Of a stretch of 32,000 nt of DNA, positions 1,923-7,804 are shown one piece after another (the stretch's first letter is position 1; each line of letters opens with the position of its first letter). The notes under the pieces were generated by a model. It saw only the letters and a list, made by a program, of their open reading frames with translations. It ran no database searches and was not told the origin of the DNA. The stretch lies in the NCBI GenBank assembly GCA_025839675.1, contig CP104013.1, positions 3,540,001-3,572,000 of the forward strand. Direction: 5' to 3'. The position numbers were made by a program, and so were the translations under genes. The stretch is from Candidatus Lokiarchaeum ossiferum. Its GTDB lineage: Archaea; Asgardarchaeota; Lokiarchaeia; Sigyniarchaeales; Promethearchaeaceae.

Positions 1923-3545
1923 ATGACCCAAAATAAAAATATTTCAGTTTCCCAAATGATGGAAAAGATGCAAAATCAAATGAATTTGCCTCCCCACGCC
2001 TACTACTTTGACACTACTCTACGAGATGGTGAGCAAACCCATGGAATTGTATTTAATATGAATGAAAAACTCGAAATTGCCCGGAGTCTAGATAATTTGG
2101 GCATCGATGTGATTGAAGCAGGATTTCCCGTCGTCTCTGATGGCGACTTTCAAGCCTGCAAAGAAATTGTGAAACTTGGCTTAAAGGCAGAAATTGCTGG
2201 ATTGGCTCGATTAAATCAACAAGACATTGATTGCGCTGTAGATGCCGATCTGGATGCCATCCACGTATTTATCGCTACGTCAGATCTGCATTTGAAGAAT
2301 AAATTAAAAATGACTCAAGATCAAGTCCTATCGAAAATTGAAAGCTATGTTTCCAAGGCGAAAGAAAATTTTACCAATGTAGTCTTCTCGGCCGAAGATG
2401 CTACTCGAACAAACTTGGATTTTCTGATTAAATGCAATGAACTCGCTGTAAATTCTGGGGCAACTCGAATCAATATTCCAGATACAGTTGGGACTATTAC
2501 CCCGATGGCGTATGGATACATAATAAAAGAACATTACAATAAGTTGCCTAAAAATATCCGAATTTCGGCACATTGCCATAATGATTTTGGTTTAGGTGTT
2601 GCTAATACCATTGCAGCTTTTGAAAATGGGGCTTCCGAAGCACAAACAACAATCTTAGGTTTAGGTGAACGAGCAGGAAATGCGGCATTTGAAGAAACTG
2701 CCATGTCTTTGTATGCTCTCTATGGATTGAAATCCAATATTATCTATAACAAAATTTATCCCACTGCAAAACTAGTAGAAAGATATTGCGGTGGAAAAAT
2801 TTCGATTGGAAGACTGACTCCTTTGATTGGGAAAAACGCCTTTTCCCATGAGTCTGGTATTCATGCTCATGCAATGATTCAAAATGCTCGAACCTATGAA
2901 CCAATTTCTCCTTCATTATTAGGAATTCCGCGCTCTGATTCCAAATCAGCAATAGTTGCCCAATCTATAAAACTCGGAAAACACACAGGTAATCATGCCT
3001 TGAGGGCTAAAATTAATGAAATAGGTATTATTCCTACGGATGAGCAGTTTTCAACGATTCGGAATAACATTAAAAGGATTGGCGACAAAGGACATGAAAT
3101 TCGAGAGGAAGATTTTCTCGCTATCGTTAAAGATGTGATGGGGGAGATTCCAGAACAAGAAAAATTCGTAATATTAGAAGAATTGACAGTATTGACCGGA
3201 TCAGTTACCCCGACTGCAACGGTTCGGTTGAAAATTCGAAACAATGGAGATTTCATTGAAAGAATTGCCTCCTCCATTGGTAATGGTCCTGTGGATGCCA
3301 GCATCAATGCTATTGTAAAATGTTTTTCCAAAATGTCGAAAATTCTATTGCTCTCATTTGATATTGAAGCCATCACCGGAGGTACTGATGCTTTAGGGCA
3401 TGTATCCATAGAAGTGGAAGATATTGAAACCAATAATATCGTCTCTTCCAATGCGACCCACGAGGATGTGGTCATGAGTGCCGTATTAGCCATGATTAAA
3501 GCCTTGAACAAACTTGTACGGGAAAAAAATTCCTCCCAAGCATAA
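1923..3545 (+). CDS. leuA: 2-isopropylmalate synthase
   Basis: It is 540 aa with the aldolase motifs FDTTLRDGEQ, HCHNDFGLGVANT and GLGERAGNA, plus a C-terminal regulatory (LeuA-dimer type) domain. The SD AAGGAG is at 1903-1908. The leuA-versus-cimA assignment is supported by the Leu-rich leader. Confidence 0.8.
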   Translation: MTQNKNISVSQMMEKMQNQMNLPPHAYYFDTTLRDGEQTHGIVFNMNEKLEIARSLDNLGIDVIEAGFPVVSDGDFQACKEIVKLGLKAEIAGLARLNQQDIDCAVDADLDAIHVFIATSDLHLKNKLKMTQDQVLSKIESYVSKAKENFTNVVFSAEDATRTNLDFLIKCNELAVNSGATRINIPDTVGTITPMAYGYIIKEHYNKLPKNIRISAHCHNDFGLGVANTIAAFENGASEAQTTILGLGERAGNAAFEETAMSLYALYGLKSNIIYNKIYPTAKLVERYCGGKISIGRLTPLIGKNAFSHESGIHAHAMIQNARTYEPISPSLLGIPRSDSKSAIVAQSIKLGKHTGNHALRAKINEIGIIPTDEQFSTIRNNIKRIGDKGHEIREEDFLAIVKDVMGEIPEQEKFVILEELTVLTGSVTPTATVRLKIRNNGDFIERIASSIGNGPVDASINAIVKCFSKMSKILLLSFDIEAITGGTDALGHVSIEVEDIETNNIVSSNATHEDVVMSAVLAMIKALNKLVREKNSSQA

Positions 3546-3613: not shown

Positions 3614-3727
3614 ATGTCACAACTAACCTGTCCTCAAAATACCTCCATTGTTAATCTTTCTAAGGTAGGGTTAGGTTTACGCATTATTACCATTATTTCT
3701 TTGATTATTCTTATTATTATCTGCTAA
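3614..3727 (+). CDS. Ile-rich leader peptide (37 aa) upstream of cimA
   Basis: ATG 3614 to TAA 3725-3727 encodes MSQLTCPQNTSIVNLSKVGLGLRIITIISLIILIIIC. It has 10 Ile in total, and 9 of the last 14 codons are Ile. The SD AGGAG (3598-3602) lies 11 nt upstream. It is not in the ORF track. Confidence 0.6.
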   Translation: MSQLTCPQNTSIVNLSKVGLGLRIITIISLIILIIIC

Positions 3728-3849: not shown

Positions 3850-5559
3850 ATGAATACTACACTTGTTCAACTTTACGATACTACTTTACGCGATGGCTTA
3901 CAAATGGCCGGAATAGCGCTATCACAGCGAGACAAATACTTACTAGTTCAGATGCTACACAACCAGTTGAATATTAATCATATTGAGATTTACCCGTTTT
4001 CCAACCCGAAAGATCGTGAATTGATTTCCATGGTAAAACAAAACACACCTGAACTTTTGGATGCGTTGGTGGCTTTTGGGTCTACCAGAAATGTGAAAAA
4101 TATCCCTCAAAATGATCCTAATCTACTATCTCTTTCCACTTGTGGGCTGAAAAAAGCCACAATATTTGGGAAATCTTGGATTTTACATTTAGAAGCTATT
4201 CACGCTTCACCAGAGGAAAATTTGGCAATGATTGCTGATTCCGTAACATATCTCAAAGAAGCTGGGTTAACAGTTATCTATGATGCGGAACACTTCTTCG
4301 ATGGATACAACGAAAATCCAAAATATGCTTTAAAAACTTTGTTAGCTGCCGAAAATGCTGGAGCAGATTATCTGATCCTATGTGATACCAATGGAGGATG
4401 CCTTCCCTCTGATATAAAACAAATTGGACAAGAAATATTGAAACATACCAATGTTCCTTTAGGAATCCATACTCACAACGATTCTGGTTTAGCCGTTGCT
4501 AATTCCATAGTCTTTACACAACTGTGTTTAGATGCGGGGCGACGTTGTCAAGTTCAAGGAACCTTAAATGGGATTGGAGAACGATGTGGCAATGCGAACC
4601 TTATCACCTTAATCCCAATTTTGAATCTTAAATTAAATCAAAAAATCATCCAGAAGGATAATTTTGCGAATTTAACTTCCTTAGCAAATGTAACGCTTGA
4701 AATTATGAACTTAAATCCCTCTGCAAATTCTCCTTTTGTGGGATCCAATGCTTTTTCCCATAAAGGTGGAATGCATATAGCCGCTGTTCGGAAAAATAAT
4801 TCTCTCTACGAACATATTAATCCAAAATGTTTAGGAAACAAACGCAAATATTTAATAAGTGAAATGGCCGGACGAAGTGCTCTTTTACAAAAAATGTCTC
4901 AATTCGAGATTCCTGTTGATAAGGATAATCCTCTCCTTGCTGAAATCTTGAAAAAAATTAAGACAAAGGAGTCGAAGGGATATACATACGAAGGTGCGGA
5001 TGCTTCCCTCGAGATTTTGATCCGGAGTTTAATCGCAGATTCAAATCGGGATATTAATTTTTATCGCCAAAAGTTCTTTGAAGTGGATTATTTTAGGGTT
5101 GTTATAGATGCCCGCAATCTATTTAACAAGAATGCTATTTCAGTTTTTACTGATGCAAATGTGAAAACTTCTTTCTTTCAAGGGGATGTTAAACGCGATT
5201 TTCATACAGCGGATTCTGGAAATGGGCCGGTAAGTGCTTTAGATAATGCGCTCCGAAAAGCCTTGATAAATTTCTATCCTGCGTTAAACGAAATCGAGTT
5301 ATCTGATTTCAAAGTACGCATCAGCAATGTCTATGATAGTGATCATGGTACTGCCTCCCGTGTTCGAGTTTTAGTAGAAACTAAAGATCTAGATGGGCAG
5401 ATATGGAATACAGTTGGAGTGCATTCAAACATTATATTGGCCTCATTTATTGCCTTAGTCGATTCATTTATTTATAAATTACTTAAGAATAATGTCAATC
5501 CAGTGGAACATCAGAGTTCAGTGGAAGTACCTGAGGTGAAATCAGCGATAAAAATGTAG
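3850..5559 (+). CDS. cimA: LeuA-related long-form synthase, probably (R)-citramalate synthase
   Basis: From ATG 3850 it reads MNTTLVQLYDTTLRDGLQ, with HTHNDSGLAVANS, NGIGERCGNANL and a C-terminal regulatory domain. It resembles the LeuA-related branch that contains Geobacter-type CimA (IE..P.SNPKD motif). The track ORF starts at an upstream in-frame TTG at 3808. The Ile-rich leader supports an isoleucine-pathway role. Confidence 0.62.
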   Translation: MNTTLVQLYDTTLRDGLQMAGIALSQRDKYLLVQMLHNQLNINHIEIYPFSNPKDRELISMVKQNTPELLDALVAFGSTRNVKNIPQNDPNLLSLSTCGLKKATIFGKSWILHLEAIHASPEENLAMIADSVTYLKEAGLTVIYDAEHFFDGYNENPKYALKTLLAAENAGADYLILCDTNGGCLPSDIKQIGQEILKHTNVPLGIHTHNDSGLAVANSIVFTQLCLDAGRRCQVQGTLNGIGERCGNANLITLIPILNLKLNQKIIQKDNFANLTSLANVTLEIMNLNPSANSPFVGSNAFSHKGGMHIAAVRKNNSLYEHINPKCLGNKRKYLISEMAGRSALLQKMSQFEIPVDKDNPLLAEILKKIKTKESKGYTYEGADASLEILIRSLIADSNRDINFYRQKFFEVDYFRVVIDARNLFNKNAISVFTDANVKTSFFQGDVKRDFHTADSGNGPVSALDNALRKALINFYPALNEIELSDFKVRISNVYDSDHGTASRVRVLVETKDLDGQIWNTVGVHSNIILASFIALVDSFIYKLLKNNVNPVEHQSSVEVPEVKSAIKM

Positions 5560-5622
5560 GAATTGATCAAAACTTTCTGGTTTCAATAGCAAAGTACCAG
5601 AGATAAAAATGACATTTAAAGA

Positions 5623-5628
5623 TTTTTT
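5623..5628 (+). terminator. T6 tract downstream of cimA
   Basis: The sequence ga-tttttt-aacg lies about 65 nt after the cimA stop. Confidence 0.3.
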
Positions 5629-5781
5629 AACGAAATTCATTCTAATTGCTCAATATTAGAATAAAATATTTTTAGTGAATTTTGAGATTTAATACTTGTA
5701 ATATAGTATTTCAATTTTGATAATTGGGGCATTTTCAAAAAGTTTAATTACTTTTCTTACTTTTAGTAAAACAATATCTTT

Positions 5782-5934
5782 GGAGCCAATCTTAATGTCT
5801 AAAATATTTCACGCTCGAAAAATTCCATTCTTTCTTTTAAAAATTCGCGTGATTTTAGTCATTTTACTTGTACTTATTATTATTTGCTAGATTGGCTCCT
5901 TATCGATTATACTTTATTAGTTGGTAAGGAGTTG
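5782..5934 (+). promoter_or_regulatory. mutually exclusive pairings: a leader-bracketing stem versus an ilvB SD-sequestering hairpin
   Basis: A (5782-5792, GGAGCCAATCT) pairs with B (5889-5899, AGATTGGCTCC) over 11 bp perfectly, enclosing the whole leader ORF. B' (5893-5909) pairs with C (5918-5934) over 17 bp (11 Watson-Crick, 6 G.U) with an 8-nt loop. C contains the ilvB SD AAGGAG (5926-5931). B and B' overlap. Confidence 0.55.
5795..5890 (+). CDS. Ile/Leu/Val-rich leader peptide (31 aa) upstream of ilvB
   Basis: ATG 5795 to TAG 5888-5890 encodes MSKIFHARKIPFFLLKIRVILVILLVLIIIC. Twelve of the last 13 codons are I, L or V. The SD GGAG (5782-5785) lies 9 nt upstream. Its last ~20 nt (CTTATTATTATTTGCTAG) nearly match the end of the Ile leader (CTTATTATTATCTGCTAA). 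Confidence 0.65.
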   Translation: MSKIFHARKIPFFLLKIRVILVILLVLIIIC

Positions 5935-5938
5935 AACA

Positions 5939-7804
5939 ATTATCAAAGGCACGAAAATTATAAAGAAAATCCTAAAAGAAACAGGAAACACCACCCTCTT
6001 TGGGTATCCTGGAGGTGCAATTATGCCCTTCTATGACGAAATCTATGAAGATCCGGATATTCGAAGTATTTTGATGCGACATGAGCAAGCTGCAGGCCAT
6101 GCGGCTGAAGGATTTGCAGTCGCTTCTGGGAAATTGGGAGTTGTTATGACCACTAGCGGACCTGGAGCGACCAACGTAATCACTGCTCTCGCCAATGCCT
6201 ATTACGATAGCTCTCCTCTCTTGGCATTTTCAGGGCAAGTTCCAACTCATTTAATTGGAAATGATGCTTTTCAAGAAGCCGATTTAATAGGTTCTACTAT
6301 GGCTATCACAAAACACAATTATCTAATCAAGAATGTTAATGATGTGGGTCGAATTTTTAAAGAAGCAATTCATATCGCTACAACGGGAAGACCTGGTCCA
6401 GTTTTTATTGATTTACCTAAGGATGTACAAAAGGCCGAAAGTACGGCAAAATTACCTATTCCTATGGATATCTCCTTAGTTGGTTATAATCCAATCACAT
6501 TCACCAATGCAGTAAAACGGCAAGTAAAAACGGCTTTGCAAATAATCTCTGAAGCCCAATATCCTGTAATCATTGCTGGAGGTGGAACTTTACTAGCCAA
6601 TGCCTCCGATGCTCTTCAACAGTTCGTCGACACTCTTAGGATCCCAGTGGTCTATACATTAAAAGGTAAAGGAGTTTTGAGTGATGATCATCCCTATGTG
6701 CTTGGATTGATTGGAATGCATGGTCGGAAACGTGCCAATTTTGCTGTTTCTGAAGCGGATGTTGTGATTGCTCTTGGTTGTCGGTTTAGTGATCGCATTA
6801 CAGGTGATTTACAGAAATTTCCTGGCCAGTCCAATGCAAAAATAATTCATGTAGATATCGATGCTGCAGAAATTGGAAAAAATGTATCGGTCGATCTCCC
6901 AATCGTTGCCGATGCAAGATGTGCTTTGGATGAATTTAATCATCAAATTCAAAAATCTTTGGTAAGAAATGAGTCTTATCCCATGAAATCATGGTGGTAT
7001 AAATTCATAGATGGATTAAAAGCCTCTTCTGGTATCCCCAATGTAACTACTCCTGGAAAAACTGGTCTAATCTTACCCGAAAAAGTGATGTATGAAATTA
7101 ATCAAATATTGGAACCAGATGATATTGTTGTGAGTGAAGTAGGACAAAATCAAATGTACTGTGGTCATTATTTGAATATTCGAAAGCCTCGGACATGGAT
7201 CACTTCAGGAGGCCTTGGTACTATGGGTTTTGGTTTTCCAGCCTCTATTGGAGCGAAGGTGGCAAAACCAGATTCTGAAGTCTGGTTGATAGCGGGTGAT
7301 GGATCCTTTCAAATGAATATGGCTGAATTAGCAACCCTCAAGCAACATAACATCAAAGTCAATATCGTGATCTTGAATAACCAATATCTTGGGATGGTGA
7401 GACAATGGCAAGAATTATTCCATGAAAAACGATATGCTGGAACATGTCTGCAATGCGATAATGGGGAGTATTGGCCTGATTTTGTGAAATTAGCGGAGGC
7501 ATATGGATTCAAAGGTCTACGAGTAACTGATCCCGCCGAAGTACGCATGGCTCTTGAAATATGTCGTTCATCAAAGGAATCCTTTATCGTTGAATTAATG
7601 ATAGAACCAGAATCCAATATTCTACCAATGTTACCTCCTGGGGGGGCACTCAATACATTCTTCAGCCGAAAAAGGGAAAAACGATCAATCTATGATTGGT
7701 ATCGACGACTTCCTCGAATTGAAAGCGAAGTAGTTGGCTATAAAGTACAAAACACCAATGAAGATGCATTTTCGGTGTATTATGAACAGGAGATGTCACG
7801 ATAA
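5939..7804 (+). CDS. ilvB: acetolactate synthase (acetohydroxyacid synthase) large subunit
   Basis: It is a ThDP enzyme with the motifs GYPGGA, GPGATN and GLGTMGFGFPASIGAK. The track ORF starts at ATG 6023, but the conserved N-terminus (IIKGTKIIKKILKETGNTTLFGYPGGAIMPFYD) is encoded in frame upstream with no AUG/GUG/UUG. ATT 5939 lies 7 nt after AAGGAG, and an in-frame TGA at 5933 sets the upstream limit. Confidence 0.85.
   Translation: MIKGTKIIKKILKETGNTTLFGYPGGAIMPFYDEIYEDPDIRSILMRHEQAAGHAAEGFAVASGKLGVVMTTSGPGATNVITALANAYYDSSPLLAFSGQVPTHLIGNDAFQEADLIGSTMAITKHNYLIKNVNDVGRIFKEAIHIATTGRPGPVFIDLPKDVQKAESTAKLPIPMDISLVGYNPITFTNAVKRQVKTALQIISEAQYPVIIAGGGTLLANASDALQQFVDTLRIPVVYTLKGKGVLSDDHPYVLGLIGMHGRKRANFAVSEADVVIALGCRFSDRITGDLQKFPGQSNAKIIHVDIDAAEIGKNVSVDLPIVADARCALDEFNHQIQKSLVRNESYPMKSWWYKFIDGLKASSGIPNVTTPGKTGLILPEKVMYEINQILEPDDIVVSEVGQNQMYCGHYLNIRKPRTWITSGGLGTMGFGFPASIGAKVAKPDSEVWLIAGDGSFQMNMAELATLKQHNIKVNIVILNNQYLGMVRQWQELFHEKRYAGTCLQCDNGEYWPDFVKLAEAYGFKGLRVTDPAEVRMALEICRSSKESFIVELMIEPESNILPMLPPGGALNTFFSRKREKRSIYDWYRRLPRIESEVVGYKVQNTNEDAFSVYYEQEMSR

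Follow-up and report, generated by a model that had tools for sequence, protein, structure and literature searches.

The stretch of DNA analysed here (the window; 32,000 nt, with coordinates counted from its first letter) belongs to Candidatus Lokiarchaeum ossiferum B-35, an Asgard archaeon rather than a bacterium, and encodes, in this order, leuA (1923-3545), cimA (ATG 3851 to 5559), ilvB, ilvN, ilvC, ilvD, leuC, leuD and leuB. Our subject is the leader of ilvB, whose product is 99% identical to an annotated protein of Ca. Lokiarchaeum ossiferum. Between cimA and ilvB lies an AT-rich spacer of 379 nt that holds a short open reading frame (sORF) and three short elements, termed A, B and C, with all leader features on the + strand (Table 1). 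Element A ends 2 nt upstream of the sORF ATG, and the sORF stop codon precedes the ilvB start by 48 nt on the same strand. An exact-sequence look-up of this sORF returned no annotated product, and the public record does not annotate it. Its C-terminus consists almost entirely of isoleucine, leucine and valine (ILV) residues. Among the 285 sORFs found in the six frames of the window, it has the longest ILV run (12 vs at most 8 elsewhere), and the three sORFs richest in these residues over their last 12 positions (11, 10 and 9) are those located upstream of ilvB, leuA and cimA.

Table 1. Features of the ilvB leader region in window coordinates (SD, Shine-Dalgarno; labels beginning with L denote loci compared with the window)
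Feature	Coordinates	Strand	Remarks
TATA-box-like TTTAATTA (inside AAAAAGTTTAATTA)	5743..5750	+	52 nt upstream of the leader ATG
Element A, GGAGCCAATCT	5782..5792	+	SD-like GGAG of the leader 9 nt upstream of the ATG; compensated substitutions in L103, L107 and L108
Leader sORF, MSKIFHARKIPFFLLKIRVILVILLVLIIIC	5795..5890	+	ATG 5795, 31 codons, then TAG 5888-5890
12 consecutive Val/Ile/Leu codons	5849..5884	+	Last 12 sense codons before Cys-stop; presumed sensing codons
Element B, AGATTGGCTCC	5889..5899	+	Anti-SD-like CUCC; begins within the leader stop codon; exact reverse complement of A
Hairpin 5' arm, TGGCTCCTTATCGATTA	5893..5909	+	Overlaps B by 7 nt
Element C, TAGTTGGTAAGGAGTTG, hairpin 3' arm	5918..5934	+	ilvB SD-like AAGGAG at 5926-5931
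Non-canonical ilvB start, ATT 5939 or ATC 5942	5939..5944	+	In-frame TGA 5933-5935; profile match begins at residue 3
ilvB, acetolactate synthase large subunit	5939..7804	+	TIGR00118, 720 bits; first gene of ilvBNCD-leuCDB

The first-pass annotation of this DNA had proposed that A and B are exact reverse complements, with B starting in the leader stop codon, and that the region overlapping B can alternatively form a hairpin with C that buries the AAGGAG of ilvB. All of these coordinates proved correct. The hairpin comprises 17 bp (11 Watson-Crick and 6 G.U pairs) closed by a loop at 5910-5917, and in isolation it folds at -20.0 kcal/mol. An 11-bp perfect inverted repeat alone proves little, because 89 of 1000 dinucleotide shuffles contain one somewhere in the 379-nt spacer. 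When position was taken into account, the A:B duplex (the 25 nt leading up to the leader ATG paired with the 28 nt that start at its stop) reached -20.2 kcal/mol with a z score of -6.8 and was matched by none of 500 shuffles, and the B:C duplex (28 nt from the leader stop against 25 nt before the ilvB start) reached -21.5 kcal/mol with a z score of -5.8 and was matched by one of 500. None of 200 dinucleotide shuffles is as stable as the fold of 5770-5950 (z -4.06). Furthermore, the bracket formed around the sORF ranks 7th among 1385 natural ATG-initiated sORFs of Asgard-type loci, and the higher-ranked brackets belong to the GC-rich contigs L091 and L092 or fall within L100 coding sequence. 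Based upon the positional duplex tests and this rank, a chance origin was rejected. The covariance models of Rfam 15 gave no match at the gathering score anywhere in the window and only chance-level scores within 5560-5990 (E > 2), and a BLAST comparison against plasmids yielded no match.

For the comparative analysis, loci carry labels beginning with L, the Asgard-type loci among them including metagenome-assembled genomes labelled Promethearchaeota and Hodarchaeota. The C-terminus of the Lokiarchaeum IlvB (7630-7804) carries an extension of ~50 residues (..SIYDWYRRLPRxExE..YKV..) that is common to the Asgard-type clade and missing from homologues of ~50% identity (about 558 aa long), those with names being methanogens. 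This extension served as a clade-specific probe in a metagenome scan that recovered 12 mostly short contigs. Among the matches listed by a contig scan with the full IlvB, no locus exceeded 49% identity, and these loci were used as the negative-control set. One IlvB subcluster, P0046 (L105/L106), is labelled Deltaproteobacteria or "bacterium", has MatE, Fe-ADH and 7TMR-DISM/HD genes as ilvB neighbours and has no ILV leader, which suggests horizontal transfer or mis-binning.

Homologous leaders were found in three relatives. L103 (IlvB 72% identical), which is sister to the Lokiarchaeum clade in the IlvB comparison, encodes one between cimA and ilvB (ttGGAGCTAATCaagaATG...ILLRIILIC-TAGATTAGCTCCCTAGA...TTTTAGGGAGatg); that of L107 (IlvB 71.6%) reads GGAGCCAA/TTGGCTCC with CTCCTTG/CAAGGAG, and that of L108 reads GGAGTCTATC/GATAGAC(g)TCT with CGTCTTTGAAAA/TTTTCGAGGCG. 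Because a full-length MAFFT alignment misaligned B of L107, pairs were counted in a module alignment made by hand for the window, L103 and L107. In it, the A:B helix comprises 11 pairs with 90.9% of cells paired and 2 compensatory pairs, and the B:C helix comprises 12 pairs with 88.9% paired and 4 compensatory pairs, which is reached by 9 of 500 shuffles. The B:C compensation is apparent from CUCCUUA/UAAGGAG in the window vs CUCCCUA/UAGGGAG in L103 vs CUCCUUG/CAAGGAG in L107. L108 contributes two further compensatory A:B pairs, C-G to U-A and A-U to U-A, and its duplex tests gave p = 0.02 and p = 0.006. Both helices reach 3-7 bp past the GGAG/CUCC core and covary. Conservation in relatives, upon which the first-pass annotation had staked its proposal, thus stands in the form of compensatory A:B and B:C changes in L103, L107 and L108, whereas the five relatives closest in IlvB have lost the leader. 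In these five (L081, L082, L083/L099, L085 and L104; 82-87% identity), the cimA-ilvB spacer and the leader are both missing because the 3' end of cimA overlaps the ilvB start, its frame running through the ilvB SD; the block AAGGAGTTGAACAA corresponding to element C is retained there, inside cimA. Since the leader occupies the same place in the outgroups L103, L107 and L108, sequence comparison indicates an ancestral leader that the closest relatives have lost by deletion, and the overlap of cimA and ilvB implies that translational coupling has replaced it.

Beyond these homologs, sORFs of unrelated sequence having the same ILV tail precede ilvB in L091, L092, L095, L097, L100 and L102, and together with L103, L107 and L108 these loci all encode a leader with a C-terminal ILV tail. 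In every Asgard-type locus headed by ilvB, an ILV-rich sORF lies 49-88 nt upstream, with the exception of L094, where it is only weakly ILV-rich; among the matches listed, 3 of 80 non-Asgard loci have an ILV-rich sORF before ilvB. The first-pass annotation had suggested looking for the same anti-SD switch before ilvB in related genomes, and the arrangement of leader SD, post-stop anti-SD and ilvB SD was indeed found in L091, L095 and L102. The leader SD pairs with a post-stop CUCC element in L102, L095 and L091 (AAGGAAGGAGT/ACTCCTTCCTT in L091), in sequence unrelated to the window, and such an element pairs with the ilvB SD in L100, L102 and L095. Both helices of L102 and L095 gave p <= 0.01 in the duplex tests; L100 has the B:C pairing only.

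The other two ILV-rich sORFs of the window occupy comparable positions. The Leu-rich sORF MNRTKSINSHSHTLSLRGFSLLGLLHLQLLVLLLLL (1713-1823), annotated as hypothetical NEF87_002999, lies 100 nt upstream of leuA and is conserved in L099 (4108-4218); an 18-bp hairpin with a U-rich loop (1821-1883, about -30 kcal/mol) begins at its stop codon. The Ile-rich sORF MSQLTCPQNTSIVNLSKVGLGLRIITIISLIILIIIC (3614-3727), annotated as hypothetical NEF87_003001, is located upstream of cimA, whose product initiates the citramalate route to isoleucine, and is followed by T5 tracts. Homologs of the latter precede cimA in L099, L081, L085 and L103, and each terminates in ..IIC-stop, as does the ilvB leader. As for the start of cimA itself, the program-made open reading frame begins at TTG 3808; ATG 3851 is favoured by N-terminal conservation (MNTTLVQLYDTTLRDG) and by the profile match.

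The initiation site of ilvB is unusual. The gene has no in-frame ATG, GTG or TTG upstream of its essential GYPGG motif and reads TGA ACA ATT ATC AAA GGC, and the same lack is seen in five other independent assemblies (L081, L083, L085, L104 and L095). L092, L094, L097 and L108 have ATG or GTG as the codon preceding (K/R/N)-G-(T/S); elsewhere this codon is ATT, ATC or ATA, at an SD spacing of 6-10. Relative to L082 and L103, the window has a 1-nt insertion that throws TTG 5932 out of frame, and a +1 shift would yield MNNIKGT, the N-terminus of L082; the PGAP annotation places the start at ATT 5957. SD-like 4-mers (GGAG/GAGG/GGTG/AGGT) occur at -20 to -4 of 10 of the 19 large open reading frames in the window, compared to a background of 11% (P about 1e-5). 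This frequency is at odds with the SD rarity stated for Lokiarchaea (PMC12993045).

The leader presumably has its own promoter. The TATA-box-like motif, whose promoter role we assume from archaeal promoter architecture, would place the 5' end of the transcript near 5770-5775, just 5' of element A. A TTTAAWT/TTTAAA motif is found 52-53 nt upstream of the leader ATG in L103, L100 and the GC-rich L091 as well, and its similar distance in all four loci suggests that the leader heads its own transcript. Further upstream, a CTGGT...ACCAG hairpin at 5577-5600, just 3' of the cimA stop, is followed 22 nt later by T6 at 5623-5628 and is a possible archaeal terminator between the cimA and ilvB units.

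The consequences of the two pairings for ilvB initiation were modelled in silico using constrained partition functions of the leader RNAs, in which accessibility was expressed as the unpaired probability of the ilvB SD. In the window, this value was 0.12 for the free RNA, 0.59 when A:B was enforced (at about 2 kcal/mol above the ensemble) and 0.00 when the leader start was occupied. The corresponding values were 0.20, 0.26 and 0.01 for L103 and 0.83, 0.83 and 0.05 for L107, and in L108 accessibility went from 0.57 in the free RNA to 0.24 with a ribosome on the leader start. When a ribosome was placed with its P site at the final sense codons or the stop codon of the window leader, the ilvB SD was unpaired at 0.31-0.66, the highest value being obtained at the stop. 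The robust and conserved prediction of these models is that initiation on the leader would close the ilvB SD and that covering B by a ribosome or capturing it by A would open the SD.

Based upon these features, we consider it probable that the ilvB leader is a ribosome-mediated translational attenuator of ilvBNCD-leuCDB, driven by ILV supply in an Asgard archaeon. The leader has the hallmarks of attenuation, namely an upstream leader frame with its own initiation signals, a ribosome-binding site held in a helix whose other strand adjoins the end of the leader frame, and a matching stall signal. From sequence and modelling, we infer that the sORF is translated, that initiation relies upon SD-like motifs, that ribosomes stall on the leader and how much masking of B and its capture by A would each contribute to the switch. 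The mRNA would begin with a short leader containing A (the leader SD), B (the CUCC anti-SD after the stop) and C (the ilvB SD), in which B could pair either with A over 11 bp or with C in the 17-bp hairpin. When isoleucine, leucine and valine are plentiful, ribosomes would load on A, cross the sORF quickly and depart; with A occupied or unwound, B would pair with nearby C, leaving the weak AUU/AUC-initiated ilvB untranslated. When charged ILV-tRNAs are scarce, a ribosome would dwell on the 12 terminal ILV codons. On the last few of these it would physically cover B, and if it stalled further upstream, B may be captured by A, since A is transcribed before C. In either case, C would become single-stranded and ilvB would be translated. 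The erm/cat-type logic driven by amino acid supply, as proposed in the first-pass annotation, is supported in its core, and it is reinforced by the Leu-rich sORF of leuA and the Ile-rich sORF of cimA.

Several observations weigh against this interpretation, and some of them limit what was originally proposed. Firstly, it had been suggested that a single CTCC element masks either SD. Both pairings exist, but A:B and B:C are not strictly exclusive, because they compete for only 7 nt (5893-5899) and the minimum free energy fold of 5770-5950 retains both helices (8 bp of A:B and 13 bp of the hairpin). Even with A:B formed, this fold leaves the ilvB SD mostly paired. Secondly, a stall on the terminal ILV codons (5849-5884) had been expected to expose the SD. 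Such exposure is predicted for a ribosome at the stop or within roughly three sense codons of it, as only a ribosome located there reaches the hairpin arm, whereas stalls earlier in the run (5849-5873) leave the SD unpaired at 0.01 or less at equilibrium. The proposed comparison of folds with and without 5876-5903 masked did show the expected increase in SD opening, albeit only a small one from 0.20 to 0.37. Among other Asgard-type loci, equilibrium folds with a ribosome mask were noisy, with an inconsistent trend in L095, L100 and L102 and the reverse direction in L092; the L091 values were discarded because its SD motif had not been located. Thirdly, the comparative data have their own limits: the five closest IlvB relatives have dispensed with the leader, and the covariation is based upon three to four sequences in the hand-made module alignment. 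The window's own leuA and cimA leaders were searched for an SD/anti-SD bracket and do not use one; for leuA, the mechanism may therefore differ from that of ilvB. Finally, SD sequences are described as rare in Lokiarchaea in a review (PMC12993045), and in several relatives GGAG lies only 0-2 nt from the annotated start codon, so its role as an SD is uncertain there.

A simpler scheme would be constitutive coupling, in which each terminating ribosome opens B:C, nothing is sensed and the ILV richness reflects incidental hydrophobicity. It is true that predicted SD exposure peaks when the ribosome has reached the stop codon, the site of normal termination, and that the leader stop codon overlaps B. 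However, this scheme leaves unexplained why an ILV-specific tail recurs in at least nine divergent loci when the rest of the peptide is unconserved, why a Leu-rich sORF precedes leuA and an Ile-rich one cimA, and why A:B is conserved by compensatory changes. We regard it as unlikely. Much the same low probability attaches to attenuation at the level of transcription, whereby ribosome position would set premature termination (at a U-tract or via aCPSF1) or RNA processing, with the hairpin acting as a termination or stability element. U-tracts are used in archaeal termination (PMC8716108), T5-T6 tracts lie between leader and ilvB in L092, L094, L095, L100 and L107, and what follows the leaders of leuA and cimA is in each case a strong hairpin with a U-rich loop, not an SD mask. 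In the window, by contrast, the stretch 5890-5939 contains no T-run of four or longer, + strand terminator-like sites are absent from 5300-6200, and the covarying conserved pairing is made exactly with the GGAG beside the ilvB start. As the host is archaeal, bacterial terminator logic is not to be assumed. Because neither a U-run nor a terminator-like site follows the hairpin, control in L. ossiferum is most likely translational. It is highly improbable that the locus encodes a small hydrophobic membrane peptide with a function of its own, or that the 11-bp repeat is a miniature mobile element, with the SD pairings mere by-products of the ability of any SD to match any CUCC: the peptide is indeed transmembrane-like, the repeat is not rare by shuffling and the spacer is missing from the closest relatives, yet it is peptide composition and not sequence that is conserved, the helices exceed GGAG/CUCC and covary, and the mobile element was rejected given that the 32 kb contain a single copy of each arm and that the element sits at the orthologous place in L103, L107 and L108, which argues for loss by the relatives rather than gain.

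Attenuation of ilvBNCD-leuCDB by leader ribosomes, as we propose, has several parallels among bacteria. As in ermC and cat, the SD of the downstream gene is enclosed in a hairpin located 3' of a leader frame, and an arrested leader ribosome would free it. The erm/cat systems are bacterial and their ribosomes are stalled by an antibiotic together with the nascent peptide, whereas here the signal would be tRNA charging in an archaeon. The logic of the mycobacterial "Cys ribulon" resembles the ilvB leader even more closely, by analogy, than that of erm/cat. In this system, a ribosome that stalls within a poly-Cys tract prevents formation of the mRNA duplex by which the ribosome-binding site downstream is otherwise occluded (Canestrari et al., bioRxiv 10.1101/834739). 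In both cases, sORFs rich in the end product lie upstream of biosynthetic genes and several operons would answer to one amino acid signal, although the mycobacterial sORFs are bacterial, leaderless and poly-Cys and the Lokiarchaeum sORF is archaeal, SD-led and has an ILV tail. A third likeness is to the bacterial attenuators of ilvBN, ilvGMEDA, leu and trp and of Corynebacterium ilvBNC (PMC11857589), in which a leader rich in the pathway amino acids stands directly before ilvB or leuA and ribosome position sets alternative RNA pairings. Unlike these transcriptional systems, which employ an intrinsic terminator hairpin and a U-run, the ilvB leader lacks a terminator and its regulated helix holds the SD. 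Its archaeal host and the additional helix between leader SD and anti-SD set it apart from mycobacterial, erm/cat and classical attenuators alike.

When the Asgard archaea are considered as a whole (Lokiarchaeia, Hodarchaeia and relatives), we think the balance tips slightly in favour of a family of leader peptides, Leu-rich for leuA, Ile-rich for cimA and ILV-rich for ilvB, that would constitute the first ribosome-mediated attenuation in Archaea, with the ilvB member being purely translational, opposing two SD-like sites to one anti-SD and retaining a conserved AUU/AUC/AUA start. Leader-peptide attenuation is a textbook bacterial mechanism. No report of it in archaea was found in the full-text literature, the coverage of which was not exhaustive, and the archaeal host makes the leader switch more unusual than the first-pass annotation, which had not been told the origin of the DNA, realised. 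If our interpretation is correct, ribosomes would act as amino acid sensors for gene control in archaea, and SD/anti-SD interactions would matter functionally in a lineage in which SD sequences are said to be rare. Likewise, sORFs that are currently unannotated or listed as hypothetical, such as NEF87_002999 and NEF87_003001, would be regulatory.

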